64,000 bases of DNA from a phage. Every line of letters starts with the position of its first letter. Positions within the stretch are counted from its first letter, which is position 1. This document shows, piece after piece, positions 24,817 through 41,610 of this stretch. Location: assembly GCA_004257845.1 (NCBI GenBank), contig GCA_004257845.1_4800.1. One strand, 5' to 3'. Made by a program: the position numbers and the translations under genes. The notes beneath the pieces are model-generated. The model searched no databases. It saw only the letters and a list, made by a program, of their open reading frames with translations, and was not told where the DNA came from.

Positions 24817-25779
24817 TTAAAAATACTCCATATCGGTAATATCACGGAAGCATTTATACAAAGCAGAGCGCGGCACGTCGACGATGCCAAAGTTAAAGAA
24901 TTTATACGTTAGGTATTTATCGCGATAGTTCTCGCGATTCTCCCAAAGCATTTTACGCTCTGCCATAGGCATTGAACCAGCGGAGACGCGGAAAGGAATC
25001 ATTTCACCTTTCTCATCCACATATTTTGGATTGACGACTACGAATGAGCCAAGGTATCCTTTCGCAACTAAACCTTCAGCCTCTTTTGAACGCTTGGTGC
25101 GACCCAATTCGTCAATGAATGCTTCGTTGTTGTTCTCCATCATCTCAACGAAGTCTATGATCAACCCTTCTTCATCGGTCCACGGCTTGTCCTTCCACAC
25201 ATCACGTGACTTCGGCGTCGCGCGGCCATGCTTATATTTGCCCGTCCAAGACTTGCCATACAAGCCTTCATATCCAAGCTGGTCTGCTTCGATTTGCATC
25301 GCCGCGTACTGTTCCATATTTTCGATGTTTCGATATTCGAGAGCGCGAAGGAATGGGCGTCGACCATGGTTGATGAGATGTTGATTAACTTCAGCAACTC
25401 TAGCTCGATAGTTTGCATAACGCTTTTCAAAAGGCAGATCAGGGTCGCTGAAGTCATCAAACACCCACCATGTAAAGTTAGTGATTGCATCAGTATTCAT
25501 GCATGCAGTATAGGCCTGTTGCATGACGTTCTTATCATTTGGATTGCCGTCGATTAGCTCTCCATCAAGTCCGTGAATTAGTTCACCCAAAAAGAGGAAC
25601 TCTTTTTTGATTTGAACGTTGCGCAACGGCATGCCGGAAGTGCCCATTGGCAAGTTGTCATACGCCATTGCACGTATGCCATCGACCTTGAATGACAGTC
25701 CGCAAGGCAGCGGCACGTCCTCGCCGCGCTCGATAATCTGCTTACGTTGGCAACCCTTCATTGGTTTTAATGCTGTCAT
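24817..25779 (-). CDS. ATP-dependent polynucleotide ligase (DNA or RNA ligase), nucleotidyltransferase superfamily
   Basis: Motif I KVDGIR (KxDGxR), motif III-like FLGELI, motif IV-like EEGLIID. Confidence 0.5.
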   Translation of the reverse strand: MTALKPMKGCQRKQIIERGEDVPLPCGLSFKVDGIRAMAYDNLPMGTSGMPLRNVQIKKEFLFLGELIHGLDGELIDGNPNDKNVMQQAYTACMNTDAITNFTWWVFDDFSDPDLPFEKRYANYRARVAEVNQHLINHGRRPFLRALEYRNIENMEQYAAMQIEADQLGYEGLYGKSWTGKYKHGRATPKSRDVWKDKPWTDEEGLIIDFVEMMENNNEAFIDELGRTKRSKEAEGLVAKGYLGSFVVVNPKYVDEKGEMIPFRVSAGSMPMAERKMLWENRENYRDKYLTYKFFNFGIVDVPRSALYKCFRDITDMEYF

Positions 25780-26978: not shown

Positions 26979-27839
26979 TTAAAACTCTTCTGCGTCGGTC
27001 GGAGTTTCATTGACAGGACCAGCGGCACCGCTTGCTTCTTCCTGCTTGCTGCGGTCGATGTTAACGTTACCGCCAACTACGTCGTTGCGGAATGCCTTGG
27101 CGACTTCGTACAGACCTTTGTCCTGCACCAGACCTTCCAGCTCAAACTTCAGAACGGACCAGGTGTTGCCGTCTTTGGACTGGGATGCAGTACCCATGCG
27201 AACGATGTTCATAAAGGTCGGCGGCGTTTTCAAACCTTGCGGAGTTTGAACTTTCTTCTGCTGCAGCGCGGTCATCAGCATACGAGACGGCTTGATCATC
27301 GAAGAAGTCAAAGACAGCATGGCACTGCCAAATTCACCCGTTTCTTCGTTCAACAGAATCACGAAGTGGTTACGTGTATCTGCATAGTAAGGAGATTTCT
27401 TCTCGTGCACTTTGCCGTTTTCGTCCGGCACAAATACCTTACCGTTGATCTCAACAGCGCGGCCTGCCGCGACTTCTGCATCAACGTGCTCTTTGGTGAA
27501 TTCACCTTTAAAGCCTTTATCGTCGGACTCGCGACCGCCCCAAAGGATGAAGGTGCGTTTGAATGCGCAAGGGATGATCTGCACGCCTTTCTTGCCGTCA
27601 TACAACTCACCAGTAACGGTGTTGTAAAGCATGCCAGCTTTTGCACCAGGAACGTGTTTTGGATCATCTTCGTCGACCATAGGAGACATCTTCTGCAGGA
27701 CGACGATAAAAGGAATGGCATACGCATCGGCATCGGCACCTTCAAAACCAGCGCCAAAATCGGTCATGTCGACAAAATCAGCCATAGCGGACATCTGGGT
27801 GTTTTTCACTGCAACTTCGGTGGTTTCTTTCTTAGACAT
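26979..27839 (-). CDS. ssDNA-binding protein (T7 gp2.5-like), putative
   Basis: Acidic C-terminal tail ending ...TDAEEF (terminal aromatic), as in gp2.5-type SSBs; located in replication module. Confidence 0.4.
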   Translation of the reverse strand: MSKKETTEVAVKNTQMSAMADFVDMTDFGAGFEGADADAYAIPFIVVLQKMSPMVDEDDPKHVPGAKAGMLYNTVTGELYDGKKGVQIIPCAFKRTFILWGGRESDDKGFKGEFTKEHVDAEVAAGRAVEINGKVFVPDENGKVHEKKSPYYADTRNHFVILLNEETGEFGSAMLSLTSSMIKPSRMLMTALQQKKVQTPQGLKTPPTFMNIVRMGTASQSKDGNTWSVLKFELEGLVQDKGLYEVAKAFRNDVVGGNVNIDRSKQEEASGAAGPVNETPTDAEEF

Positions 27840-28790: not shown

Positions 28791-30314
28791 TTAATTCATC
28801 TTTTTGCCGTCGAGGATGTGATCAGCAAGCATAGACTTCATACTTAATGAACGCTGAATTTCTTCATCGATGGTATCAACACCAATAAAATCAACATACA
28901 GCACACTTGATTTGGTGCCGATGCGGTGATTTCGGTCTTCGGATTGTTTGCGCAACTCGTTGTCATAGTTGCAAGAATAATAGATTGCCAAGTCGGCGGC
29001 GGTAAGCGTGATACCGATTCCTGCCGCTGCAGCGTGACAAACAAGCACTTGCGTCCCACCGTTCTCGACTGTGTTCTTCTGGAAGTCATCAATCAAGAAC
29101 TCACGCTGCTCTTTTGACGTCTCACCGTTATATACACCAGTGACCACGCCTTCAGACTCAAGCCAGTCCTTAATCTGGTTCATTTCTTCCTTAAAGATGG
29201 CCCAAACGATGAATTTGCGCTCTGGGTCGTCTTCCAGCACCCCTTCCACATAATCCTTAAAGGCCGTGAATCGTGGGTTGTCTTCCATGTAGACCATCTC
29301 ATCATACACCTTGACAAAGCCGGATGTAACCTGCTTCATCTTGGTGCGCGACGCGATCATCTCAAACTTGACGTTTTCTTCTTCGCCCTTGTATTCCATC
29401 AAATAGTTGTACTCATTCTTGAGTTCATCGTAGACATCGCGTTGTTTAGGCGACAGCTCGAAGTCGATAAACTTATACACCTTCTCTGGAAGGTCAGGCA
29501 AGTATTCCGCTTTTGTCGCACGAAAATAGTGCGGTTCCATCAGCCGGATAAGCTTGTCAAGGTTTTTGTACATCGGTCGGCCAAACTGGTCTTTGCGCGG
29601 CACTTGCGGAATCCCATAGCCATTGCCGCCGATTTTCTTGAGGATGGCTTGCATTTCTGGGTCGTGCGCTTCAAGTAGCACAGTGAATTCAGAGTTGAAG
29701 GCGCGGAAAGATTTGGTGCCGAGCAAGCCTGCTTCAAGGAAGTGATATTGCATGTAAATATCCGCAGGCGAGCGCGGCAACGGCGTGCCAGAAAGGATTC
29801 GACGGGCCTTTGCCAGCCGACCCAATTCCACGACCTTGATGGAGCGTTTTGCTGTGTTATTTTTGATGCGAGTCGATTCATCAATGATCATCAGGCAGCG
29901 GTATTTCTTCAAGACCGACTCGATGTGTTGATAACCTACTGGTGTGTTGACGGTATCGATGTTGAATGAGAAGATGCGCGCAGGCACTTCGCCTTCAGGG
30001 TAGTGATCAGCAAACATCTTCTCCCAAAGCGCCTTGCCCTTTTTAGTCTTCATCTTGTCGTTGCCGCGCCAGTAGTGCCCAATCCACTTGATGGAAAGGT
30101 GTTCTGGTGCTTCACGACGAATCCAGTTGGAGTGGACACCGTTTGGAGCGATGACGACCATGGCATCGAACGCGCCAGCAGTGAAGTGCTTTTCAAACTC
30201 TGCCAAAGCGGTCCAAGTTTTACCAAGACCCTGTTCCATGAAATAGGCAAAGTATTTTCTGCGGCCTGCTTTATCAAGCGCCAGAAGCTGGTGGCGCATC
30301 CCTTGTGTTTTCAT
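28791..30314 (-). CDS. SNF2-family DNA helicase
   Basis: Motif I GLGKT, motif II IIDESTRIKN, C-terminal helicase motifs HAAAAGIGITL. Confidence 0.75.
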   Translation of the reverse strand: MKTQGMRHQLLALDKAGRRKYFAYFMEQGLGKTWTALAEFEKHFTAGAFDAMVVIAPNGVHSNWIRREAPEHLSIKWIGHYWRGNDKMKTKKGKALWEKMFADHYPEGEVPARIFSFNIDTVNTPVGYQHIESVLKKYRCLMIIDESTRIKNNTAKRSIKVVELGRLAKARRILSGTPLPRSPADIYMQYHFLEAGLLGTKSFRAFNSEFTVLLEAHDPEMQAILKKIGGNGYGIPQVPRKDQFGRPMYKNLDKLIRLMEPHYFRATKAEYLPDLPEKVYKFIDFELSPKQRDVYDELKNEYNYLMEYKGEEENVKFEMIASRTKMKQVTSGFVKVYDEMVYMEDNPRFTAFKDYVEGVLEDDPERKFIVWAIFKEEMNQIKDWLESEGVVTGVYNGETSKEQREFLIDDFQKNTVENGGTQVLVCHAAAAGIGITLTAADLAIYYSCNYDNELRKQSEDRNHRIGTKSSVLYVDFIGVDTIDEEIQRSLSMKSMLADHILDGKKMN

Positions 30315-30733
30315 GACAATTCCTCTAAATACTTGATGATGTGATGGATGGACCCGCTCGCGGCGACCATAGCCAGAATCTCATGCTTAGTATATTCTTT
30401 TAATCGCAATGAAGGGTGAACTAAATAATAAGCCTTTTCAGAGTCCACCTTCAGCAACACGAATGACGAGAATTTCCAATCACTCCAAGAAGTCAAAAAG
30501 CTTTGTTGACCTTTCTCAAATGCGCTCTTGAAAGGAAGAGTGGTGGCCCTTGCAGGCCACGATTCAAAGAACTTCATTTCAAGCCAAAAGCCGCGCCCTT
30601 TCCGGTTGGTGCCGATTACGTCCGGCACACCATCACCCGTCATTGATTCGATTCTTTGAAGCTTCAAGATTGATTCTGAATGCTTCTTCAAAGGCACGAA
30701 TATGTATTTCTGTTCACGGTTATTTGTTGCCAT
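30311..30733 (-). CDS. VRR-NUC domain nuclease
   Basis: PD-(D/E)xK-like GVPDVIG...WLEMKF; 4-nt overlap with SNF2 helicase gene; start taken at internal Met just after polymerase stop. Confidence 0.5.
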   Translation of the reverse strand: MATNNREQKYIFVPLKKHSESILKLQRIESMTGDGVPDVIGTNRKGRGFWLEMKFFESWPARATTLPFKSAFEKGQQSFLTSWSDWKFSSFVLLKVDSEKAYYLVHPSLRLKEYTKHEILAMVAASGSIHHIIKYLEELS

Positions 30734-33617
30734 CTGGATACACCTGTTTGATAACGTCGACGATGAACATGTCAATGCCTTCAAGTTTGCGGCCTTTCAT
30801 CAGGAAGAATGCGCCGTTCCCGACGTTCTCTGCAATGTATTTCCCGTATTTCTGGAACTTCTCTGGACGAATCCTGAAGCGCATTGGCGAGTCGGTCGAA
30901 TCGTCCTTGCACATAAGGTCAATGAACTGAGTCTCAAGCTTGTTTCCATACTGGTCAAACTCTGCGTAGCGGCCATCAGCTTGAAGACCCTTTTTAAGTT
31001 TGCCGTGCTTTGTATAAATGCCGCGCTCAAGACGTTTACGGATGCGTGTCGCTTCGTTCTCGTCAGCCAGCACTTTCTTGGTCAACTTGCCGATCACTAT
31101 TGCACGCTCGTCATCGCCGACTTCCTTCATCTGGCGTATTGAAGCACCGGAAGTAACGCCAATCAGATAGGGGTCATTATATGCCCATCCGAACTTTGTG
31201 TGCATCTCTGTAAGGTCGCCGTATTTGACTTCAGCATTGGCCAATGCATCCTTTTGCTTTTGCGTTAAGGTTCCGGCTTCACGTGCTTCGATATACTTCA
31301 TCGCCTTCACCATGCCATATCCTTTTGCGTTCATGATGCCGCCGATTAGCTTTCCGTTAGCGATGGTCCAGTTCATTGAAGAGTGATCAGGGTCGATTGG
31401 CACATAATCCACGCCTTCCTTCGCAAGTTCACGTAATATCGCAATCGTCTGGTCTTCGTCCTTAGCAGCGCGTAAGCAAGCAGCGGCAAATTCCAACGGG
31501 TAGTGTCGCTTAAGCCACAAGGTCCAGTAGGTCACGACCGCGTATGATACGGAGTGTGACTTGTTAAAGCCCCATGACCCGAACGTCGCCATCGCTTGCC
31601 AAAGCTTTCTTGCATCCGCTTCCGGTACGCCGTTATTTATTGCTCCTGCAACGAAGTCTTCGCCAAGCTTGTTAAAGTATTCCTCACCCTTACGACCTGA
31701 CATCGCCTTACGTACAGCGGATGTTTTCGCCCAGTCAAATGAACCAATCTCTTTGACCACGGCCATGATTTGCTCTTGGTAAAGAAACACGCCGTAAGTC
31801 TCTTTTAAGTACGGCTCAAGCTGCGGCACGTCGTACTCAATCGGCGCACGTCCTGCCGCGCGTTCAATGTATTTCTGGGCCATACCGGACGACAACGGGC
31901 CAGGTCGGCCAAGTGCTGTCAGGTTATCGATTTTGTTAAAGTTATCAACGTGCACAAAGTTGGTTACTGAGCGTACAGCGTCGCCTTCAAACTGGAAGAT
32001 GCCTGACATCTTGTTTTCGTTAAGGATGTCAAGGACGCTTTGGTCATCAAGCTTGATTCCGTACAGCGTTTCAGCATCTATCACGCCAGTATCAGAAATG
32101 ATTCCGAGAGTACGAAGGCCCAGCGCATCAAGCTTCAAAAGGTTTAGGTATTCGCTGTCAGGCTTATCGATTTGCGCAATCCCTTCTGCAGTTACAGTAC
32201 AGTAATCAGAGATTGGGTCATTACACACAATGATTCCCGCTGCGTGAACACCTGTGTGAGACGGGTGAATCTCAAGGTCACCCATGCAACGCGCGGCGTC
32301 AGGATATTTCGCCACGAACTCTTGGCCCGTGGTCGTTGTTGCAAAGGTATCCTCCAGGCCGTGACCATAACGGGCGTCACCGGATGAGTATTCAAGCAGT
32401 GCGTTTTTAATGTTGGCTGTTTCGTGGTATCCAATGTTGAACTTCTTACCAACTTGAGCCATTACTGAGTTGGCCTTAAGCGTGTTGATGTTGCCAAGCT
32501 TTGCAACGTTCATTTCGCCGTATTTCTCTTTAAGATAATCAAACACCATATAGCGTTTGGTATCTTCAAAGTCGATGTCGATGTCAGGAAGGTCGGCGCG
32601 GCTTACGTCGATGAATCGGGCAAACAGTAGCTTATACGGGATTGGGTCCACTTCCGTGATGCCGAGGCAATAGCAAACAAGTGAACCAGCCGATGAGCCG
32701 CGAGCAGGACCGACGAGCATTTTTGTTTTTGCGAATCGTACAAGGTCTGCTACCACCAGAAAGTATGAGTCGAAATCTTTCAGCTGAATCTGGTGAATTT
32801 CTTCGTTGAAGCGGTCCTCGTATTCCTGAGTCCATTCTTTGATGTGACCTGCTTTGAGACGGTACTCCATGCCCTCACGCGCAAGCTTTACCATGTCACC
32901 AGCAAGGTGAATAATCGGTGCCTTACGCAATTTCAGGTCAAGTCCGACTATGCCGTTTGCTATGTCAACAGCATTGGCCGTTGCCTGATTGAGCTCATCT
33001 TCAGTCAAGATGCCTTTAAGCTGTTTTCGCAAGTCTTCCGCGTCAACGATGCAATGCGGCTTCACCGTGTCGCGCACTTCCCAAGCATAAGCAAAGTCAA
33101 CGTGCTCAGGTGAAGGCATGTGGTTGTATCCGGTTAAAACCAGCGGCCTTCCACCACTACGATGAGCCAACACCTGGCGCTTTGCCAAAAGGAACGACGA
33201 TGGGTTGACGTCTATATAGTCGTAGTCCTCTGGCCGCAGCAGTTCCACGGCACCGCCACAGAATTTAACGACGCCATCGAGCGCCCCGAACTCTGCACGG
33301 GTAAGACCACCACGCTGCGTTGCAAGTGTTGTAGCGTTGTAAAAAGATTTTAAGTCAAGGGCCAATATCCAAGCCTTCGGTTTGAATCCCTTTTTCGGGT
33401 CCGCATCAGGGTCGATGATTGGAATCTCCATTCCAAACATAGGATTAATATCATTTTTCTGGCATTCCTTTTCCCAGCGAACGTGACCCCATGTGTTGTT
33501 ATCAACTAATGCCGCGACTTCGCAGCCCAACTCTTTGAGCCGTGCTATAATTTCAGGATGCCGTCCATAAACTTCTTTGAACGTGTAACCGCTGCGAACT
33601 CTCAATTGTGGAAACAT
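30720..33617 (-). CDS. dnaE: DNA polymerase III alpha subunit-like (DnaE-type) replicative polymerase
   Basis: Catalytic palm motif LPDIDIDFED, FNKSHSVSYAVVTYWTLWLKRHYPLEF, GRPGP; N-terminal PHP-like region. Confidence 0.8.
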   Translation of the reverse strand: MFPQLRVRSGYTFKEVYGRHPEIIARLKELGCEVAALVDNNTWGHVRWEKECQKNDINPMFGMEIPIIDPDADPKKGFKPKAWILALDLKSFYNATTLATQRGGLTRAEFGALDGVVKFCGGAVELLRPEDYDYIDVNPSSFLLAKRQVLAHRSGGRPLVLTGYNHMPSPEHVDFAYAWEVRDTVKPHCIVDAEDLRKQLKGILTEDELNQATANAVDIANGIVGLDLKLRKAPIIHLAGDMVKLAREGMEYRLKAGHIKEWTQEYEDRFNEEIHQIQLKDFDSYFLVVADLVRFAKTKMLVGPARGSSAGSLVCYCLGITEVDPIPYKLLFARFIDVSRADLPDIDIDFEDTKRYMVFDYLKEKYGEMNVAKLGNINTLKANSVMAQVGKKFNIGYHETANIKNALLEYSSGDARYGHGLEDTFATTTTGQEFVAKYPDAARCMGDLEIHPSHTGVHAAGIIVCNDPISDYCTVTAEGIAQIDKPDSEYLNLLKLDALGLRTLGIISDTGVIDAETLYGIKLDDQSVLDILNENKMSGIFQFEGDAVRSVTNFVHVDNFNKIDNLTALGRPGPLSSGMAQKYIERAAGRAPIEYDVPQLEPYLKETYGVFLYQEQIMAVVKEIGSFDWAKTSAVRKAMSGRKGEEYFNKLGEDFVAGAINNGVPEADARKLWQAMATFGSWGFNKSHSVSYAVVTYWTLWLKRHYPLEFAAACLRAAKDEDQTIAILRELAKEGVDYVPIDPDHSSMNWTIANGKLIGGIMNAKGYGMVKAMKYIEAREAGTLTQKQKDALANAEVKYGDLTEMHTKFGWAYNDPYLIGVTSGASIRQMKEVGDDERAIVIGKLTKKVLADENEATRIRKRLERGIYTKHGKLKKGLQADGRYAEFDQYGNKLETQFIDLMCKDDSTDSPMRFRIRPEKFQKYGKYIAENVGNGAFFLMKGRKLEGIDMFIVDVIKQVYPDGNK

Positions 33618-34159
33618 TATTTACTCCAGATGTCATATACGCCAATTTGTTGGCAGACTTTGTGCAGTAATATTACGTCGTCTAATGCACGGTGTTTCTG
33701 TTCATATTTTCCGAAATATAATTCATACAGCTCTTGAAGCTTAACTCTTCGGCCAAAAATAGGCAAGGTTTGCTCAACTGTACAAATGTTTATTTCTGGA
33801 AAATTAACATCATCAAGCGTAAGTCCTTCGCGCTGTAGTGCATAATCAAGAATGTTTTTATCGAACGCATGGTTGTGCGCGATAGTTGCATCAGTCTTCT
33901 TGAAGATTTCTTTTAGCTGCGGGACGAAATTGATGAACGGTGGATTGCACTCAAGGTCTTCATTTGTTAATCCGGTAATCTTTGTGATAATTTCTTCAAT
34001 CACGATTTCAGGATTAATTATGAATTCAAACGTTTCAAGAATCTCTTTGCCGTCTGTCAACAGACCTGCAAATTCAATAGGGCGCGGCTGCATCCCAAGC
34101 GGCGCTTTCGGGTGCACGGTCAATCCGGTTGTTTCGAAGTCATAAGGGAGAAATAACAC
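33617..34159 (-). CDS. dnaQ: DnaQ-like 3'-5' exonuclease (DEDDh)
   Basis: Exo I YDFETTGL, Exo II IAHNHAFDKNIL, Exo III HRALDDV. Confidence 0.75.
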   Translation of the reverse strand: MLFLPYDFETTGLTVHPKAPLGMQPRPIEFAGLLTDGKEILETFEFIINPEIVIEEIITKITGLTNEDLECNPPFINFVPQLKEIFKKTDATIAHNHAFDKNILDYALQREGLTLDDVNFPEINICTVEQTLPIFGRRVKLQELYELYFGKYEQKHRALDDVILLHKVCQQIGVYDIWSK

Positions 34160-34213
34160 ATTAGCCTCCTACAAAAAGGCCGCCCATTAGGACGGCCACA
34201 GATTCACGATTCG

Positions 34214-34765
34214 TTATACAGTGTACGGAGTACCGTCTTGATTCAAGCGCACGATAAACTTCAAATCAACGCCGATGATTTCACGCGTATCAAAGATCAC
34301 ATAGTTGTAACGACGTTGACCAGCAATGTTCGGGTTGGTATGAGAGTCAGTTACAACTTCCTGTGCAACCTGAATGCCTTCTTCGCTAAAGAACTTACGC
34401 CATTCAGCAAGTTCAGCGGCAGTTACGTGCATACCAAGATGGCTAACCTGATTGTCATGCGCATCGATATATTCGATGTTTTCGTTAATCCAGTTGCAGC
34501 CCATTGTGTAGTCAAGGATTTCAAGCTCAAGAGGCTTACCAGCGCCGCCATCAGTACCGTTGCCAGCCTGATAGTTGAAGCGCAAGTCAGCTTCATTGGT
34601 GCAATCGTCGCGACGACCTTTAAAGTCATCAGCTTCAAATACGCGACCAGTAGCAACAACATGATCATGGAACCATTCTGTCAGGCCGATTTTAGCCAAG
34701 AAATCCTGTGCGCGCTGAGCATCTGGAATTGACAGGGCGATTTGTTCAATTTTAAAATGTGGCAT
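34214..34765 (-). CDS. hypothetical protein (possibly VOC/glyoxalase-like)
   Basis: ORF; weak resemblance only. Confidence 0.3.
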   Translation of the reverse strand: MPHFKIEQIALSIPDAQRAQDFLAKIGLTEWFHDHVVATGRVFEADDFKGRRDDCTNEADLRFNYQAGNGTDGGAGKPLELEILDYTMGCNWINENIEYIDAHDNQVSHLGMHVTAAELAEWRKFFSEEGIQVAQEVVTDSHTNPNIAGQRRYNYVIFDTREIIGVDLKFIVRLNQDGTPYTV

Positions 34766-34861
34766 TTTGTTTCCTTAATTAAATATTATTGATTAATTAC
34801 TGTGTTGTCTTCGTCCTGTTTCTTTTCAGGAGCGGGTGTGACAACTTCAAATGTTCGTGAT

Positions 34862-35545
34862 TTATTTACCAAATGGAATATCAGTACCAGACATAAAGCG
34901 CCATGCGCCAGTAATTAAGATATGGCGAATGAAGTCAGCAATTACTTGCGGCTCAGTCTCCAATCCATTCATCAATGCCTTTTTCTGGTATTCAGCAGCG
35001 TATTCAGGAGTCCAGCCGCGAGTCGCGCAAACGGCATCTTCAATCTGTTTAGACATGCCAGTGCCGCGCAACTTGTTAGGACTAATAGAGAATACCGTGA
35101 TGCCGTACTTAGGCGTAAGTTCGTGAGCCATCTGCTTGCTGATCATAAGCGCAGCAGCCTTGGATGCATTATAACACAAGCTGGACGTCATAGGAATATG
35201 CGCAGCGTTGGAAACGATGTTGATCACAAAGCCTTTGTTGTCGATAAGACTTTTCAGCGCAGCCTGAGTCGTGTTAACGAAAGAGAATGCGTTGGTGTGC
35301 ATAACGCGGTTAAACTCTTCATAGTTTACATCTTCAAACCAATTGTTAGAGTTGACACCAGCACAGTTGATCAAGCCTTCAACATCATATGGGCTTAAAA
35401 TTTCTTTCATCTGTTTAGCATCGCGGACGTCATATCCGTATGCTGAATCGATGCCAAGCACGTTATGACCGTAAGCGCCAAGGGTGTCAAAAATAGATTT
35501 ACCAAGACCGGAATTGGAACCTGTTACAACAATTACTTTTTTCAT
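34862..35545 (-). CDS. short-chain dehydrogenase/reductase (SDR)
   Basis: TGSNSGLGKS (TGxxxGxG), NCAG, catalytic YNASK (YxxxK). Confidence 0.7.
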   Translation of the reverse strand: MKKVIVVTGSNSGLGKSIFDTLGAYGHNVLGIDSAYGYDVRDAKQMKEILSPYDVEGLINCAGVNSNNWFEDVNYEEFNRVMHTNAFSFVNTTQAALKSLIDNKGFVINIVSNAAHIPMTSSLCYNASKAAALMISKQMAHELTPKYGITVFSISPNKLRGTGMSKQIEDAVCATRGWTPEYAAEYQKKALMNGLETEPQVIADFIRHILITGAWRFMSGTDIPFGK

Positions 35546-35610
35546 TTATTTATCCTTTTTGGACTTCGTTTCGATGAGGTAAATATAACTCATCGAAACG
35601 CACAAGTAAA

Positions 35611-36483
35611 CTATTTATTGAAATTAATATTATGGGTGTTTACAAGACGTTCACACATGGCGCTATAAACACCATCGTCGTGTATTGAGTCTTCGTGCTT
35701 CAGGCCGCTGATTGCGAAGCGTGTAAGCTTGACAATCTTAAGCTCGAACAGATGCCACATGTGGTAGTCTTCCGGCGTTTTCAGCGTCACGCCATTAGGG
35801 AACAACACCTGCATAACCTGACCTACCATCACAGCGTTATCGCCATAAACGGCATTGCGCTCACGGAAGGTCGCGGCCATCGCATCAAGAATATCGGCGG
35901 CAGTTGCCGGAGATTGTTCAACTTCCACAGCCTTAGTCTCTTCTTGCCCTGTTGCGCTTGGATCAATTGCTAATTGTTGCACCACTTCACCTGCTTTGCA
36001 AAGATTAAATGTAAAAGCGATTTTATTTTGAGCAACGGAGTTATAATACAATGCTTCATCTTGCATCCGCGCGAGTACGTCTTGTCGGTCGTCGAATACA
36101 TTGATGATTCGATAATCGCCGTGCCGCAAAGCGTGCGATAGCCATGCAGATTTCATAATAGTTGATGGACGTTTGTCGCCATAGTCTCTCATCTTGATTG
36201 TAAATTCATCAAAAGGGAAAACATTGTCCAGACGTTCAAAAGTCACTTGTCTGTATTTTTCTGGCCTTGCAGTCCAATATTCAACCGCCTCACCGCGAAG
36301 AGATGCCGACTCTACTGCTGATGCAATGTGAGGATAGAACTGATCATAACCAATACCGCTGTGATAGTCATCATAGTCTGACAACGGACCTGCCACCTTG
36401 ATGCGGTCTAAGCGCCAACGGTCATCAAACAGCGTTCCGTCAAGGTCGAATACGTTTAAGATTTCGCTGTTTTTAATGCTCAT
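35611..36483 (-). CDS. HAD-superfamily phosphatase-like protein
   Basis: Motif I VFDLDGTLFD; later INVFDD. Confidence 0.5.
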   Translation of the reverse strand: MSIKNSEILNVFDLDGTLFDDRWRLDRIKVAGPLSDYDDYHSGIGYDQFYPHIASAVESASLRGEAVEYWTARPEKYRQVTFERLDNVFPFDEFTIKMRDYGDKRPSTIMKSAWLSHALRHGDYRIINVFDDRQDVLARMQDEALYYNSVAQNKIAFTFNLCKAGEVVQQLAIDPSATGQEETKAVEVEQSPATAADILDAMAATFRERNAVYGDNAVMVGQVMQVLFPNGVTLKTPEDYHMWHLFELKIVKLTRFAISGLKHEDSIHDDGVYSAMCERLVNTHNINFNK

Positions 36484-37283
36484 CCTTTTGATACTCCATC
36501 TTTAGCAACTGGATTGTTGGTGATTGGCATTGCACTCCAAAACTGGATGCGCAACTCTTCTTGCTGTGCCGTGGTATCCATCCAATCACGATACCAAGGG
36601 CAATGGGCTTTGCCATGACGAGGAAACGCGCACTTACCCATACCGATGCACTGAGGCTGTAGTAAAGGATTGGCCCACGGGTGCACCTTAAGGACTTCCG
36701 CAACCATTGCACGGAATACTTCTTGATACTCGCCTTGAGTACGCGTGCACAAGCGGTTAGAGGCCATTTGTTGCAGAGTGCGCAAGTTGAACTTTGCCAT
36801 GATATGCGTTTGCATATTAGAAGGCAACACGGCACGTGCATCTTGAATCTCTGCGCCAGCCGCGCGAAGTTCTTGGTATAGGGCGTCAATGGTTGCCATT
36901 GCATCATCCCATTTCTCTGCCAGTTCAGCAGCCTTCTCGTCATGACGAGTCCATCCCTTTGGATCATCCTCTGGGTAAGTAAATTTGGCAGGACGAATCG
37001 CATCAAATGCTGACGACTCCTGAGCGCGGCTTGTGCGTTCTTGATATGCACCTGTGCGTGTGCGCACCATCTGATGAGTCATATTCTTTGATACATCAGT
37101 GATGTCAAAGATATAGTCCACAAAGTCAAAAGGCGACTTGATTGTATCAAGCATGTAGCGCCAGTGCTCTTGCTTCTCTGATTCTGTCATCTCAGAGACT
37201 GGCTTACCAGTCATGCGCGTGTTCTTTGTTTCCAGCAAAAGGTCAAGTGCATCTTGGGTGTATCGAATTAATTCAACTTTCAT
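36480..37283 (-). CDS. thyX: flavin-dependent thymidylate synthase (ThyX)-like protein, RTR variant
   Basis: THQMVRTRTGAYQERTSR aligns with ThyX signature (Q..RHR..SY.E.S.R) but has Thr in place of His in RHR. Confidence 0.55.
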   Translation of the reverse strand: MKVELIRYTQDALDLLLETKNTRMTGKPVSEMTESEKQEHWRYMLDTIKSPFDFVDYIFDITDVSKNMTHQMVRTRTGAYQERTSRAQESSAFDAIRPAKFTYPEDDPKGWTRHDEKAAELAEKWDDAMATIDALYQELRAAGAEIQDARAVLPSNMQTHIMAKFNLRTLQQMASNRLCTRTQGEYQEVFRAMVAEVLKVHPWANPLLQPQCIGMGKCAFPRHGKAHCPWYRDWMDTTAQQEELRIQFWSAMPITNNPVAKDGVSKG

Positions 37284-37296
37284 TTTAATTATCCTA

Positions 37297-37743
37297 TTAA
37301 CGGTAATTCACTAGTTGCTGATCACCAGAGAAGGTGCAATGATAAACGAATTGTGCGTTATAAAGCAACTGAAAACTTTTCTTTGGTTCATTATTAGAAC
37401 TCATTGATGTAAAGATTTCTGCACCAGAACGGTTTTCACCAATCAGGTTAATAAAGCCGCCAGTTGAACGAGGCTGAACGAAAGTGAAACGCTGCATCCA
37501 CGGAGTCCGGTTGGCACCTTTTCCAGTGAATCCCTGAATCTGAATATTCAGACCTTCTTGCTCGTTCACACCGATGTAAGTGGTAATTGTTGCGCCAGTC
37601 GTCGCTGCGGTCTTGCCGTCCATCGCTTCGCAATCGTAAACAGCGATTGAATCGGAAGTACGGACAGCGGCTTCAGTCGCTTCCATATACATGGTTCCGA
37701 GAATAGCAGTCGCGGCAAGCGCGATTCCAGTGATGCGTTTCAT
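37297..37743 (-). CDS. secreted protein, hypothetical
   Basis: Signal-peptide-like N-terminus MKRITGIALAATAILGTMYMEA. Confidence 0.4.
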   Translation of the reverse strand: MKRITGIALAATAILGTMYMEATEAAVRTSDSIAVYDCEAMDGKTAATTGATITTYIGVNEQEGLNIQIQGFTGKGANRTPWMQRFTFVQPRSTGGFINLIGENRSGAEIFTSMSSNNEPKKSFQLLYNAQFVYHCTFSGDQQLVNYR

Positions 37744-37808
37744 TTTCGTTTCCTCTATGAGTTCTGCTTCAATGATTAAAGTATACGCCCATTGAAGCAG
37801 AAAGCAAA

Positions 37809-38804
37809 TTATTTATTAGCAATATAAGCAAATTTTTGATAGTTATTTGCTTTGATGAGTTTTTCAACTTCAGCAAGGTCATGAGCGACGTCATCAAGCA
37901 AAATGTTTCGCCAAGTAGCGAATCGACCGACACTAAATACGTTCAAATCCATAGTCAACTGGAGCAGTAAGGCGTGGCGCAAGTCTTTCGGAATGTCGAC
38001 AATTTTGCCATACTTCTGGTCAACCTTTTCAACTTCTTCCAAAGAGATGTCATTCCATGAAAGACCAAAAGCGGTAAGAACTTCATCCACTTCTGCACGC
38101 AGCTTCATGTCGCGATAACGGGTAATGCCGCCAGCGGCTTCAACTGCTGCCGCGCTGACGCTTACCAATGGAATTGTTTCAATGATCAGCGTGTCACCAG
38201 TGATTGATGCGCGGTAAGTCCTTACAGAATAGTCAGGGAAGTAAATTGTTTGATAAAGTTCACACTTGCGCTTAATCTTAAAACGATAAACGCGAATATT
38301 TGCCTTATCAAACGAGAAGTCGAGTTTTTGATCAATACCAGCAAGCTTCATCATGACTGGCAGCGGCGATGTGTTGATGATTGGCGTCTCGCTATAGCCG
38401 CAAAGCGTGTCGACCGGAGTATTAAAGAATATACGGTCACCCAGTTTATCGACAAGTTGATCATAAAAGTCATCCGGCGCTATGTAGCGCGTAGCAGTTT
38501 GAAGCTTCATGATTGAGCGGCTGCCAAACTGGTTGGTGACTTTCATAGAGTACATGTTGGCAAGGTTAATCGGGCAGTGGTCGTGATAGTAGTTGCCGCG
38601 AAAATACACAGCCTTATCGACTGTCACGGCCTTAAAGGGGATTCCGGTAATACGGCTTACTTCTTCGCCGCGAAATCGTAGCAGCGCCTTGTGCTGCGCG
38701 ACGCGTTCGCCTGCTTCGTACACAATAGAGTTCGGAAAGTGACAAGCCGTGATAAGTCCTGCCAGTCCGCCGCCGATAATCATTACAGGTTGTTTCATGT
38801 TCAT
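37809..38804 (-). CDS. FAD/NAD(P)-binding Rossmann-fold oxidoreductase-like protein
   Basis: N-terminal VMIIGGGLAGLITA (GxGxxG) followed by IVYEAG. Confidence 0.5.
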   Translation of the reverse strand: MNMKQPVMIIGGGLAGLITACHFPNSIVYEAGERVAQHKALLRFRGEEVSRITGIPFKAVTVDKAVYFRGNYYHDHCPINLANMYSMKVTNQFGSRSIMKLQTATRYIAPDDFYDQLVDKLGDRIFFNTPVDTLCGYSETPIINTSPLPVMMKLAGIDQKLDFSFDKANIRVYRFKIKRKCELYQTIYFPDYSVRTYRASITGDTLIIETIPLVSVSAAAVEAAGGITRYRDMKLRAEVDEVLTAFGLSWNDISLEEVEKVDQKYGKIVDIPKDLRHALLLQLTMDLNVFSVGRFATWRNILLDDVAHDLAEVEKLIKANNYQKFAYIANK

Positions 38805-38937: not shown

Positions 38938-39786
38938 TTATTCTGCTTGATCGTCGTGCTCTTCGGCATCTGCTTCGGATTCAACATCGATGAACTCGAT
39001 GTGGCCCATCTCTTCCAGTTTGCTCAGGTAAGAGCGAACTGAAGCGCCAAACAGCTGATCTTTAACTTTTTCACCCAGCTCGTCGATAGACTGCGGCTGA
39101 CCGATTTCACCTTCTTTGATCGCAGCCAGTACGCGACCACGGGTGGAATGTTCTTGCGGCTGGCTCAGGCCGTTTCCGGTGTAAACAAAGTGAGTTGCTT
39201 TAGCGCGACGCTGACCATTAGCTTTCTTGGCGGCTTTACGCTCTGCAATCGCTTTGCGACGCTCTTCAGCTTCTTTCTTACGCTGTTCTTTCTGTTGTTC
39301 TGCAGCTTCTTTCGCCGCAATCTTAGCAGCTTCACGCTCTGCCTTGCGTTTCGCTTTCGCTTCTTCTTTAGCCTTTTCTTTTTCGGCTTTCGCTTCTGCA
39401 CGGGCCTGATCACGTTCAGCCTTTTTCGCCGCAGCTTGTTCAGCTTTCAGGCGCTTGGCTTCTTCTTTCGCCTTTGCCTTTTCAATTTCTTTAGCGGCTT
39501 TAGCGGCTTCACGCTCTGCCTTCTTAGCAGCAGCCTTTTCAGCACGCTCTGCAGCCTTCTTAGCGGCTTCTTCAGCACGCTTCTGAGCCTTCTCGTCAGC
39601 AGCCTGCTTGCGTTTCAGCGCAGCTTCTTCACGCTTGGCTTGTTTTTCCTGCTCACGCTTCTGGCGTTTTTCTTCGGCTTCTTTCTTTTTAGCCAGGCGT
39701 TTTTCTTCAGCCACGCGACGACGTTCTGCTGCAGCTGCTTGTTTTTCTTCTTTAGATAATACTTTGATTGCTTCGGCCATATTCAC
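38938..39786 (-). CDS. Lys/Ala/Glu-rich low-complexity protein with C-terminal globular domain (histone H1-like composition)
   Basis: About 190 aa of KAE-rich repeats (KKAAERAEKAAAKKAEREAAKAAKE...) then non-repetitive C-terminus; strong terminator downstream. Confidence 0.5.
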   Translation of the reverse strand: MNMAEAIKVLSKEEKQAAAAERRRVAEEKRLAKKKEAEEKRQKREQEKQAKREEAALKRKQAADEKAQKRAEEAAKKAAERAEKAAAKKAEREAAKAAKEIEKAKAKEEAKRLKAEQAAAKKAERDQARAEAKAEKEKAKEEAKAKRKAEREAAKIAAKEAAEQQKEQRKKEAEERRKAIAERKAAKKANGQRRAKATHFVYTGNGLSQPQEHSTRGRVLAAIKEGEIGQPQSIDELGEKVKDQLFGASVRSYLSKLEEMGHIEFIDVESEADAEEHDDQAE

Positions 39787-39939: not shown

Positions 39940-41124
39940 TTAACGCGCTTTCAAATCACGGTACACGGTCAGATTCTTCTTAGCACGGGTGATAGCTGTG
40001 TACATCATCTTGGAGTACGGAACGCCGCGCAAGATTTCTTCCAGCACGCACACATTGTCCCACTCGCTGCCTTGCGATTTGTGCACCGTGATGACATAGC
40101 CATAATCCATCCCGCCAACAGCGCGTTGGGCCTCTTTGCGCACTTCCTGATCAGTAGAGAAGGAAAGAGGATTAATCTTAACCTTTATATCTTTGCCATC
40201 GGTAAGCGAGCGCAAATTGACATACATGATTTCATTGGACTCGTCTTCGTCCCTTTCAAAGTCCGGCACTGGTTCATAGCTAATAACAATCCCTTGCTCG
40301 CCATTACAGAATCCTGGCCCGTGCTGGTTGAAGGTGCAAATAACTTTCTCGCCGATTCCTGGCATTGGCGTTATACGTCCGCTCACTTGCCGTAATAATG
40401 AATTCCATTTATCTTTGGTGCTATTATAGGAGCAAATAATTTGATCATCTTCGCCCATGAATTTCTTCAATGCAGTAACGCGCGGCGATTCTGCCAGAAC
40501 TTTTACATCGTCGTATTCACGCGGAGGAAGGCGGTTGCCTTGGCGCACGAAGAAGGAGGCGCGGATGATGTTGGACTCTTTCCCTTGGCGCATGATTTCT
40601 GTTAACAGTACGTCAACGGCTTCTTCGGTAAAGTAGGCGGCGGCTTTTACCGGAGGGACTTGTCCAATGTCGCCTAATGCCAGGACAGGGATGCGGTGAT
40701 CAAGAAGGCGCTCTGTGTCCCACTCGCCAACCATTGACGCTTCATCAAGAACAACAAGGAGCGGCTTTTCGTCCAGCTTTGACTTTCTCGAGAATATTGG
40801 CTCATTGTCGTCATTTACGCCGCGCACGTTATAGATGAACTGGTGAAGGGTCTTAGCTCCACGACAGCCTTTTTGCTTTAATCGGCTTGCAGCCTTTCCG
40901 GTAGGCGCAATATAGATAGCGCCGTACTCACCGACACAGCGGCGCACAATCTCGCGAGCAATAGAGGTTTTACCAGTCCCTGCATAGCCAGCGATGAAAA
41001 ACACGCGCTTCGTCGTTTTACCGTCCTGCAATCGCTTGTACCATGCAACGGCCTTCTCGATGGCATCGATTTGTTGCGCGTTAAACTGAATCACTGGCTC
41101 ATCATTAAATTCTGGAATGTTCAT
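39940..41124 (-). CDS. SF1 DNA helicase, RecD/Dda-like
   Basis: Walker A GYAGTGKTS, VVLDEASMV, C-terminal TVHKSQGSEWD. Confidence 0.75.
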   Translation of the reverse strand: MNIPEFNDEPVIQFNAQQIDAIEKAVAWYKRLQDGKTTKRVFFIAGYAGTGKTSIAREIVRRCVGEYGAIYIAPTGKAASRLKQKGCRGAKTLHQFIYNVRGVNDDNEPIFSRKSKLDEKPLLVVLDEASMVGEWDTERLLDHRIPVLALGDIGQVPPVKAAAYFTEEAVDVLLTEIMRQGKESNIIRASFFVRQGNRLPPREYDDVKVLAESPRVTALKKFMGEDDQIICSYNSTKDKWNSLLRQVSGRITPMPGIGEKVICTFNQHGPGFCNGEQGIVISYEPVPDFERDEDESNEIMYVNLRSLTDGKDIKVKINPLSFSTDQEVRKEAQRAVGGMDYGYVITVHKSQGSEWDNVCVLEEILRGVPYSKMMYTAITRAKKNLTVYRDLKAR

Positions 41125-41450
41125 TATAACTCCACTACGCTTTCAAGGTCCAGATATACTGGAATAAAATGGCAATCTTCTTTTCGTTCAAACATCTCAC
41201 CATCAACATGGCTGAAGAAAACAGTCGTGTTTGGTATCTTCCATCCTTTCTCGTCGCGCACTAAGTACGCCATGGATTCAACAGGGATGTACAGAGATAC
41301 CGGATTTGCGGCAAAAATAAATTTGATTCTGTCTGGTTGACCCAGGAATCGCATGATTGTTAGGCTTGAATTCAATCTTGTATTAAGGAAGGACTCAACG
41401 ATTCCGACGTGTGTTGCACGTTCGCGTTGCTTCGTCTCTTTTTCGTTCAT
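41124..41450 (-). CDS. hypothetical protein
   Basis: ORF; start overlaps helicase; minus-strand promoter upstream. Confidence 0.4.
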   Translation of the reverse strand: MNEKETKQRERATHVGIVESFLNTRLNSSLTIMRFLGQPDRIKFIFAANPVSLYIPVESMAYLVRDEKGWKIPNTTVFFSHVDGEMFERKEDCHFIPVYLDLESVVEL

Positions 41451-41488
41451 TTCAGGCGACCTTTGTTAGTGCGGAAATATTTTCTGAT

Positions 41489-41517
41489 AGTATAATTGCA
41501 GATATAGTATAAAGCAA
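41489..41517 (-). promoter_or_regulatory. sigma70-like promoter on minus strand (TTGCTT-17 nt-TATACT)
   Basis: Minus-strand -35 TTGCTT (plus 41512-41517), -10 TATACT (plus 41489-41494); divergent from + strand promoter. Confidence 0.4.
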
Positions 41518-41553
41518 AGTAAATCGAAATTGTGAACTAAATGGTAAATATTG

Positions 41554-41581
41554 TTGACTTTGTATCACTCAATATTATACT
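41554..41581 (+). promoter_or_regulatory. sigma70-like early promoter (TTGACT-16 nt-TATACT)
   Basis: -35 TTGACT 41554-41559, -10 TATACT 41576-41581, upstream of RBS GAAGGAAAG and ATG at 41611. Confidence 0.5.
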
Positions 41582-41610
41582 GCAGGTATTGATCACCGAA
41601 GGAAAGAAAG

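Follow-up and report, generated by a model that had tools for sequence, protein, structure and literature searches.

DNA polymerases of the C family are rarer in tailed phages than those of families A and B, as a preliminary description of the locus considered here had supposed. Across 18,382 genomes they were the least common type, with 947 C-family enzymes compared with 6560 PolA and 2857 PolB (PMC11348598), and a C-family polymerase was present in 1414 of the 50,697 phage records searched in this work. A module that pairs such an enzyme with further DNA-processing genes was described in 2025 for phage Banzai of the genus Pbunavirus (Lindbergviridae), with functional assignments that match those given below and include a Holliday junction resolvase and an Ino80/CHD1L-like translocase (PMC12390725). 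The same genes are found in Wifcevirus phages (ManiWeber_Bas99, vB_EcoM_WFC/WFH, FEC19, ECML-117 and others), where the GenBank labels read DNA polymerase (III alpha), exonuclease subunit and helicases. The operon is real but ordinary and already known, being annotated in GenBank and having a Pbunavirus counterpart interpreted in print; with its genes annotated in dozens of records, it has little discovery value. A search of the literature found no characterised phage DnaE/epsilon pair of this lineage.

The window analysed here is a stretch of 64,000 nucleotides, within which the locus occupies positions 28791-34159. Nucleotide identity over this interval was 98.8% to Escherichia phage ManiWeber_Bas99 and 94-95.5% to the other Wifcevirus phages named above; identity to 29 Wifcevirus records ranged over 94-99% and, judged from sequence, the stretch is that of a virulent, PB1-like Wifcevirus myophage. 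Wifcevirus is a group of E. coli phages related to the Pseudomonas PB1-like phages. The locus is essentially indistinguishable from the annotated Wifcevirus module, apart from slips in the Bas99 annotation concerning the exonuclease start and the nuclease label. We read it, with a probability of roughly 0.85, as the central replication operon of this phage, working by the mechanism proposed below.

The four open reading frames claimed in the preliminary description were all recovered at their coordinates on the minus strand, and lie in the order exonuclease, polymerase, small nuclease, SNF2 ATPase. The exonuclease stop and the polymerase ATG overlap as TAATG, the end of the polymerase gene shares 14 nt with the small nuclease gene, and the small nuclease and the SNF2 start overlap by 4 nt (ATGA). 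Given these overlaps, the four coding sequences are probably translationally coupled. A Shine-Dalgarno sequence, AGGAGG (34165-34170, minus strand), lies 5 nt upstream of the exonuclease GTG, and a putative terminator-like hairpin (34178-34197, minus strand) with an 8-bp GC-rich stem containing 7 G-C pairs and a TTTTT tail was identified by pattern scan between the exonuclease gene and the gene upstream of it. A scan for promoter-like sequences returned 27 matches compared with 23.4 expected from shuffled sequence, and thus no excess.

The gene order exonuclease-DnaE-nuclease-SNF2 is common to Wifcevirus, Pbunavirus, Carpasinavirus, Luteibacter phage Pluto and Pseudomonas phage tabernarius (Tabernariusvirus). 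The likeness to Pbunavirus extends to the flanks: ThyX and a PNK-like gene precede the exonuclease-DnaE-resolvase-SNF2 series, and MazG and a ligase follow it. By contrast, the polymerase of Pbunavirus shows 58% identity and has about 50 residues more, identity between the nucleases is only about 32%, and the SDR and glyoxalase-like genes that lie between the PNK-like gene and the exonuclease are absent from Pbunavirus BL9.

The largest of the four genes (30720-33617, minus strand) encodes a 965-residue DnaE-type, Pol III alpha-like C-family DNA polymerase. A profile search had been set beforehand as the test of the motif on which this assignment was based, and the protein matched the Pfam models for both the Pol III alpha catalytic region (PF07733, 3e-63, 214 bits, cut-off 23.9) and the fingers (PF17657, 1e-37, 129 bits, cut-off 22), while the PHP model was matched at 3e-5, under its gathering score. 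Among NCBIfam models, TIGR00594 was passed (473 bits, cut-off 434) and the bacterial DnaE equivalog NF004226 was failed (494 bits, cut-off 1002). By its profile scores the protein is thus a member of the superfamily that does not reach an orthologue-level match to bacterial DnaE. An assignment as PolC was rejected: the PolC models scored only 40-42 bits, and a sequence search of the PDB returned DnaE1 at ~1e-85 and no PolC. Similarly, an AlphaFold2 (AF2) model (pLDDT 86) compared by Foldseek superposed on DnaE1 structures with TM scores of 0.70-0.75 (E about 1e-45 to 1e-50), compared with 0.62-0.63 (E about 1e-27) for PolC. The model comprises a degenerate PHP domain (residues about 1-240), palm, thumb and fingers (about 240-790), a helical HhH-like region (about 770-820) and a C-terminal OB fold (about 838-959), which is the domain order of DnaE and not that of PolC. 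The PHP and C-terminal domains were recognised only through profile-profile alignment and the AF2 model, since PDB sequence searches with the N-terminal 245 or the C-terminal 170 residues alone gave nothing meaningful.

The catalytic motif LPDIDIDF, noted at the outset, lies at 32568-32591 (minus strand). In pairwise alignment D345, D347 and D497 correspond to the catalytic D401, D403 and D555 of E. coli DnaE, and all three are invariant in 52 homologues. The motifs of the PHP domain are replaced, with Arg/Arg at the HxH positions (QLRVR; Q/R/R) and VD-N in place of TDH, so that by alignment the metal-binding residues are gone. This replacement spans the PB1-like and Ss1-like clade, whereas actinophage and many bacterial DnaEs keep HxH and TDH.

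Phylogeny, which had been proposed as a further check, placed the polymerase in a phage lineage. In a neighbor-joining tree that is rough, and whose bacterial sample is biased by having been collected with two exact peptide patterns, it fell in a PB1-like clade with 100% support, sister to other phage sequences and apart from E. coli DnaE1 and DnaE2. The DnaE-like polymerases of actinophages (Mycobacterium phage KandZ, Streptomyces phage Persimmon) share this broad region of the tree, in which phage sequences dominate; they differ in being 1090-1130 residues long, with 30-38% core identity, in keeping the HxH/TDH/E metal ligands of the PHP domain, and in having no exonuclease gene annotated alongside in the stretches examined. 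The contig scan with these two peptide patterns returned no copies in Enterobacteriaceae prophages.

These data also bear on whether the enzyme could be the host replicase, captured recently, or else an error-prone DnaE2/ImuC of host type, acting in repair or mutagenesis while host Pol III replicates the phage. The score against the error-prone DnaE2 model is sizeable (331 bits), and the protein lacks tau- and clamp-binding elements, as such a role would allow. The DnaE score of 494 bits is nevertheless higher, core identity is just 33-34% to E. coli DnaE and 27-28% to DnaE2, and the tree position is away from both. Furthermore, the polymerase is coupled to a proofreader, for which an error-prone enzyme would have no need, it has no ImuA or ImuB neighbors of the kind found at DnaE2 loci, and its gene is grouped with those for a primase, helicases and a ligase in an operon conserved among strictly virulent phages. 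Both host capture and a DnaE2-like role were rejected on these grounds, and we regard this explanation as highly improbable.

A proofreader is predicted from the gene immediately upstream of the polymerase (33617-34159, minus strand), as the preliminary description had proposed. Its 180-residue product consists of a DnaQ/epsilon-like DEDDh 3'-5' exonuclease catalytic domain only. It matched Pfam RNase_T (PF00929, 9.6e-22, 78.7 bits, cut-off 24), its best PDB match was the PolC exonuclease domain 2p1j (4e-6), and the DEDDh residues D7, E9, D100, H156 and D161 are all present and invariant. The gene end at 34159 proved correct, corresponding to the GTG start; the start given for Bas99 in GenBank is 22 codons later and forfeits the DxE motif. 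Some GenBank records name the exonuclease 'PolC-type'. In Pbunavirus, Pluto and FoX7 the gene immediately upstream of DnaE likewise encodes the exonuclease; so does that of Cronobacter phage Ss1, a more distant phage (33% identity, 1e-22), and a MAG contig (L012) carries a candidate 180-residue ORF, a putative exonuclease, in the same position. Against the epsilon equivalog TIGR01406 the protein scored 43.8 bits and failed the cut-off of 222.7.

The polymerase and exonuclease together resemble the E. coli Pol III core in combining a C-family polymerase with a separate DEDDh proofreader. The two polymerases share the catalytic Asp triad, their domains follow the order PHP-palm-thumb-fingers-HhH-OB, and the PHP domain is catalytically dead in both. 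Alignment of profiles by hhalign covered only residues 4-857 of E. coli DnaE. Unlike E. coli alpha, the phage polymerase has no tau-binding domain in the AF2 model, in which the protein stops at residue 965, just after the OB fold, and it has neither an internal nor a C-terminal clamp-binding motif: the one string that resembles Qxx[LM]xF is YQEQIM, a finger motif that is universal, and there is no conserved Gln at residues 790-965 across the family. Unlike E. coli epsilon, the exonuclease lacks both the C-terminal alpha-binding tail and any clamp-binding-like motif, because the protein ends at residue 180. A physical alpha-epsilon complex of the two proteins can therefore only be supposed. 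Taken from sequence, the phage pair appears to have lost all the features through which E. coli alpha connects with the clamp, tau and epsilon.

The third gene (30311-30733, minus strand) is annotated with its start at 30733, giving 140 residues, and not as the longer ORF that reaches 30784. The product is a predicted PD-(D/E)xK nuclease in which D38, E52-x-K54 and Q76 are conserved; D38, E52 and K54 do not vary among 10 sequences drawn from at least five genera. Bas99 is annotated with the name 'DNA helicase' for this protein. The family corresponds to phrog_2165 and is confined to PB1-like phages (357 phage records), and a word-indexed search for homologues yielded 6 relatives. The predicted fold, from a model built on a shallow 6-sequence alignment for which the five models had pLDDT values of 54 to 83, was nearest to the RecU and Hjc resolvases and similar to solved resolvase structures; VRR-NUC domains were not among its nearest structural neighbors. 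A PDB sequence search with the protein alone gave chance matches, and the top PDB match of the family profile, the FLI1 pointed domain (E 0.003), looks spurious.

The preliminary description had called this gene and its SNF2 neighbor an SNF2 helicase/VRR-NUC pair. The adjacency of an SNF2 ATPase and a small nuclease was upheld, but VRR-NUC membership was not, there being no match to Pfam VRR_NUC (PF08774) at E<=1. Nor was there a match to Hjc; the sole Pfam match was RecU (E=0.1, 13 bits, cut-off 25), so that the protein falls in no detectable sequence family of RecU, Hjc or VRR-NUC. The PD-(D/E)xK active site is common to the whole superfamily and hence does not discriminate VRR-NUC. It is unlikely, in our estimation, that the protein is a true VRR-NUC member too diverged for Pfam, forming with its neighbor the classical phage SNF2/VRR-NUC pair. 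Such adjacency is known in phages, and the family profile did match the VRR-NUC structure 4qbo, aligning GvPD...vEvK, at E 0.29; against this stand the Pfam results. All three of VRR-NUC, RecU and Hjc are members of the PD-(D/E)xK superfamily, and phage and bacterial VRR-NUC proteins are likewise junction resolvases. The distinction is thus a matter of label and not of function. On the predicted fold, the small nuclease is of the RecU/Hjc-like Holliday junction resolvase type, with membership of VRR-NUC not demonstrable.

The last gene (28791-30314, minus strand) encodes a predicted SNF2-family ATPase and dsDNA translocase of 507 residues, with matches above cut-off to Pfam SNF2-rel_dom (PF00176, 8.6e-22, 78 bits) and Helicase_C (PF00271, 5.8e-11, 43 bits), a match to phrog_62 (2e-106), a Walker A GLGKT at 29 and a DEST box at 145. 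Nuclease-helicase pairs are common in conflict systems, and the C-terminal half of this protein is similar to SNF2 domains found in defence proteins, ZorD among them (4e-19, far under cut-off). Both observations would suit a counter-defence or host-DNA-degradation module that owes its place in the operon to chance. The likeness to defence proteins is, however, confined to the generic helicase core, and the nuclease has the fold of a junction resolvase and not that of a non-specific DNase. Moreover, the pair overlaps the polymerase gene, is frame-coupled to it, and holds this position in Wifcevirus, Pbunavirus, Carpasinavirus, Tabernariusvirus and Luteibacter phage Pluto. We regard a function outside replication as very improbable.

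Further candidate replication genes were identified elsewhere in the window. A 286-residue Pam3_Gp34-family protein (26979-27839, minus strand; Pfam PF23977, 1.8e-85) is a candidate ssDNA-binding protein; it has an acidic C-terminal tail ending in Phe, conserved in four genera, and gave no match in a PDB sequence search. An ATP-dependent DNA ligase (24817-25779, minus strand) is assigned by the annotation of the 98.8% identical relative and weak Pfam ligase domains. A Dda/RecD2-like SF1B helicase (39940-41124, minus strand) matched Pfam AAA_30 (4.6e-22) and UvrD_C_2 and NCBIfam RecD2 (2.6e-34). On the plus strand are a RepB-type primase resembling that of plasmid RSF1010 (41611-42693; Pfam RepB_primase, 6.2e-36) and a VapE-like P-loop NTPase (44003-45673; Pfam VapE-like_dom, 1.6e-28), a candidate self-loading replicative helicase whose Pbunavirus homologue has been described as a SaPI-like self-loading helicase (PMC12390725).

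It had been suggested that clamp and clamp-loader genes be sought outside the window; the annotation of the 98.8% identical relative, whose complete genome is 68 kb, lists no such gene and only a single DNA polymerase. Within the window, no Pfam clamp or clamp-loader domain was detected in the scanned ORFs, and the only P-loop proteins among the scanned non-structural ORFs were the SNF2 ATPase, the Dda-like helicase and the VapE-like NTPase. A very divergent clamp might conceivably lie among the small ORFs of no assigned function. Compared with E. coli, no counterpart of theta, the beta clamp, the clamp loader, DnaB or DnaG was found; the phage has a primase of RepB type and, as its candidate replicative helicase, a VapE-like protein. 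The earlier designation of the locus as a bacterial-type replisome core therefore fits only the alpha/epsilon pair, and not the primase, the helicase or the missing clamp and loader, and the SNF2 protein and small nuclease are not core parts.

The following mechanism is proposed, the activities and interactions of the operon proteins all being inferred. The DnaE-type enzyme would be the only DNA polymerase of the phage and its replicase. The co-translated exonuclease would proofread in trans, in the manner of alpha and epsilon in E. coli, because the PHP domain of the polymerase cannot do so. Primers would be supplied by the RepB-type primase, the VapE/SaPI-like helicase would unwind the template with the Dda-like helicase as an accessory, and the ligase would close nicks. 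The SNF2 translocase and resolvase-like nuclease would remodel and cut branched DNA, such as stalled or reversed forks, recombination intermediates and branched concatemers, before headful packaging. No phage-encoded clamp or clamp loader would be involved.

The remaining value of the operon is biochemical, as a compact candidate for the study of processivity and proofreading by a C-family polymerase without a holoenzyme. Pbunavirus relatives are widely used in phage therapy. We tentatively raise the possibility, to which we give rather less than even odds, that the PB1-like/Wifcevirus replicase is a minimal, clamp-independent C-family replicase, composed of an alpha without tau and clamp elements and an epsilon without an alpha-binding tail, with processivity coming from further phage proteins, for instance the SaPI-like helicase or the SSB-like protein with the acidic tail. 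An infection cycle of 3-5 min has been reported for two Wifcevirus isolates, according to a citation in PMC11990801, and a clamp-independent replicase, if that is what the phage encodes, could underlie a cycle of this length. It would also be the first case in which a C-family polymerase was shown to copy a genome with no sliding clamp.

The region 28791-34159 carries, as previously described, four minus-strand open reading frames (exonuclease, 33617-34159; DnaE-type polymerase, 30720-33617; small nuclease, 30311-30733; SNF2 protein, 28791-30314). Its nucleotide identity to the corresponding part of Escherichia phage ManiWeber_Bas99 is 98.8%, and 28 further records, all Wifcevirus from Escherichia or Shigella (WFC, WFH, FEC19, ECML-117 and Bas98-101), were 94-95.5% identical. 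Wifcevirus comprises virulent myophages of 66-72 kb, to which the Pseudomonas Pbunavirus (PB1-like) phages are distantly related (PMC11990801); a report cited in the same paper puts the infection cycle of two isolates at 3-5 min. Existing GenBank labels for the four genes are DNA polymerase (III alpha), exonuclease subunit and helicases. The statement that a family-C polymerase is less common in tailed phages is correct, though well known: a survey of 18,382 Caudoviricetes genomes counted 6560 PolA, 2857 PolB and 947 family-C polymerases (PMC11348598). Given this, and that the module of the Pbunavirus phage Banzai has been interpreted in print as alpha and epsilon homologues, a primase, a ligase, three helicase/translocases and a Holliday junction resolvase (PMC12390725), the replication module of the window is already known.

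The assignment of the 965-amino acid polymerase to the DnaE type withstood profile searching, with Pfam matches to DNA_pol3_alpha (3e-63) and DNA_pol3_finger (1e-37). The LPDIDIDF catalytic motif is encoded at 32568-32591, and Asp-345, Asp-347 and Asp-497, the counterparts by alignment of the catalytic Asp-401, Asp-403 and Asp-555 of E. coli, are invariant in 52 homologues (57-86% identity). PDB sequence matches over residues 240-798 were to Thermus, E. coli and Mycobacterium DnaE1 (∼1e-85), with no PolC among them. NCBIfam scores were 494 bits for DnaE, 331 for DnaE2 and 40-42 for PolC; the TIGR00594 superfamily cut-off was passed, and none of the equivalog cut-offs. An AF2 model (pLDDT 86.4, pTM 0.79) gave Foldseek TM values of 0.70-0.75 to DnaE1 structures versus 0.62-0.63 to PolC. 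Downstream of the fingers, the model shows a short helical region followed by an OB fold (strands 838-852, 897-904, 912-916, 937-944 and 950-959, with local Foldseek matches to OB proteins), at which the protein ends; by contrast with alpha of the E. coli holoenzyme, the tau-binding domain is absent. As to a clamp-binding motif, no Gln is conserved within residues 790-965 across the family, and a Qxx[LM]xF-like string occurs only as YQEQIM, the finger motif that is universal. The polymerase gene of the window is uninterrupted. That of phage Ro157lw (MH051335.1, 44657-47678) aligns as two separate segments, with an additional ∼127 nucleotides, and carries two coding-sequence annotations, and a 1232-amino acid metagenomic homologue contains an intein domain (PF14890).

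The PHP match was weak (3e-5, under the Pfam gathering score), and the family profile aligned to residues 4-857 of E. coli DnaE, PHP domain included. The metal ligands are replaced, H-x-H by R-V-R (in QLRVR) and T-D-H by V-D-N, in all of the PB1-like clade and also in the Ss1-like group that is sister to it, whereas actinophage DnaEs and many bacterial DnaEs retain both motifs. An inactive PHP domain would fit with the need for a separate proofreader.

A candidate for this role, a separate DEDDh exonuclease, is encoded: the 180-amino acid protein is of RNase_T type (Pfam, 9.6e-22), with Asp-7, Glu-9, Asp-100, His-156 and Asp-161 present. It consists of the catalytic domain alone, without the tail by which E. 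coli epsilon binds alpha. The boundary at 34159 is right, given a GTG start, AGGAGG upstream at 5-nucleotide spacing and a conserved N-terminal DxE motif that is also kept in Pluto, BL9 and FoX7; this GTG is likely the true start. The annotation of Bas99_0045 begins at an internal ATG, so that the Exo I DxE motif is lost (window equivalent 34093-34159, minus strand). A DEDDh gene immediately precedes dnaE in Pbunavirus, Pluto and FoX7 and likewise in the distant Cronobacter podophage Ss1 (33% identity, 1e-22; annotated as hypothetical), and a putative 180-amino acid open reading frame occupies this position in metagenomic contig JAFLJO010000119.1.

DnaE-like genes were detected by tblastn in 1414 of 50,697 phage records (376 full-length), the hosts being mostly Pseudomonas, Mycobacterium, Streptomyces, Gordonia and Bacillus. 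A large protein database yielded >5800 relatives at E≤1e-10; the best 120 of these are 56-99% identical and ∼930-1040 amino acids long, many on contigs of ∼60-74 kb, and include Pantoea phage Kyle, Serratia phage Hera, Luteibacter phage Pluto, Xanthomonas phage Carpasina and Burkholderia phage WTB. In a neighbour-joining tree (534 core columns, 43 taxa, 200 bootstraps) with sparse and pattern-biased bacterial sampling, the window polymerase fell in a PB1-like clade with 100% support. The sister of this clade (100%) comprises Ss1 and probable phage contigs in bins of metagenome-assembled genomes, and the combined group next joins the phage DnaEs of KandZ, Persimmon and SSU5 with weak to moderate support (36-84%). 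Full-length relatives of the phage-type DnaE (33-37% identity), including that of JAFLJO010000119.1, lie on contigs (L012, L016, L011, L014 and L015) binned as Desulfocapsa, Thioalkalispiraceae, Phycisphaera, Alphaproteobacteria and Desulfopila; the contigs probably come from phages and were wrongly assigned to bacterial bins. The window polymerase grouped with neither E. coli DnaE1 (34% core identity) nor proteobacterial DnaE2 (27-28%). This placement speaks for a long-standing phage lineage and against recent acquisition from an enterobacterial host.

The small gene, taken to start at 30733 as annotated in relatives, encodes 140 amino acids. Its earlier VRR-NUC label could not be upheld, as no Pfam VRR_NUC match was obtained even at E≤1; the only Pfam match was RecU (E=0.1), an NCBIfam search gave none, and the PHROGs assignment, phrog_2165, is labelled "DNA helicase" without visible reason. 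Asp-38, Glu-52-x-Lys-54 and Gln-76, conserved in an alignment of at least five genera, form a PD-(D/E)xK signature, and the protein is filed as a RecU/Hjc-like resolvase-type nuclease of that superfamily. Cutting of branched DNA is the expectation under either label, and the Pbunavirus homologue has been named a Holliday junction resolvase (PMC12390725). By tblastn, the gene occurs in 357 phage records, exclusively of PB1-like phages (Pseudomonas, Escherichia, Serratia, Burkholderia, Xanthomonas and Pantoea), and adjoins the polymerase gene throughout the matches listed and loci examined. The adjacent 507-amino acid protein proved to be SNF2, with SNF2-rel_dom and Helicase_C domains (Pfam) and GLGKT and DEST motifs. 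SNF2 ATPases are dsDNA translocases, not replicative helicases; together with the resolvase-like nuclease, this protein would likely act in fork or junction remodelling and debranching ahead of packaging.

The four genes overlap successively, by TAATG (exonuclease stop, polymerase start), 14 nucleotides (polymerase, nuclease) and ATGA (nuclease, SNF2), and a GC-rich hairpin with a T run (34178-34197) lies ahead of them. Wifcevirus, Pbunavirus, Carpasinavirus and Pluto share the order ThyX, PNK-like, (SDR, unknown), exonuclease, DnaE, nuclease, SNF2, two to three unknowns, MazG and ligase; Tabernariusvirus too keeps the central DnaE-nuclease-SNF2 order. The minus-strand block immediately upstream (34214-38804) encodes glyoxalase-like (weak match), SDR/FabG-like, HAD/PNKP-like (290 amino acids), ThyX and Rossmann-like (331 amino acids, phrog_4828) proteins. 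Pluto and FoX7 share the first four in synteny, within stretches that end before the phrog_4828 gene. Given the considerable restriction resistance reported for Wifcevirus in K-12 (PMC11990801), this block could conceivably serve to modify nucleotides or DNA. A 282-amino acid protein (38938-39786, minus strand; phrog_4765) combines a long Lys/Ala/Glu-rich low-complexity region with a short globular C terminus and had no Pfam match.

Also encoded are a primase of the RepB type (6e-36), an NTPase resembling VapE (1.6e-28; both Pfam), a Dda/RecD2-like SF1B helicase (Pfam, NCBIfam) and, by annotation in Bas99, an ATP-dependent ligase. The Pbunavirus VapE-like protein has been described as a SaPI-like self-loading helicase (PMC12390725). 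A 286-amino acid Pam3_Gp34-family protein (Pfam; 26979-27839, minus strand) has an acidic C-terminal tail with an invariant terminal Phe (DAEEF, QADNF, EAEEF and TADNF in four genera); given the resemblance to the tails of E. coli SSB and T7 gp2.5, this protein is a possible ssDNA-binding protein of the phage. Used as a query against PDB sequences, it gave no matches. The cumulative GC-skew minimum of the window, at ∼40000-42000 (intergenic 41450-41611), falls at the divergent junction between leftward replication genes and rightward RepB-primase and early genes. It could be a replication origin or merely a transcription strand switch; skew minima occur in the replication region of Pbunavirus too (PMC12390725).

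The suggested search for clamp and clamp-loader genes, including beyond the window, returned none, either in the annotation of the complete Bas99 genome or by Pfam in 30 window open reading frames covering all non-structural ones of at least 130 amino acids. The one remaining point of some interest is that neither a clamp nor a clamp loader of the phage could be detected, and neither a clamp-binding motif nor a tau-binding domain. The term "bacterial-type replisome core" holds for the alpha/epsilon pair and fails for the RepB-type priming and VapE-like unwinding functions: the replisome is a mosaic, in which a bacterial-type alpha/epsilon pair is combined with plasmid- and phage-type priming and unwinding.
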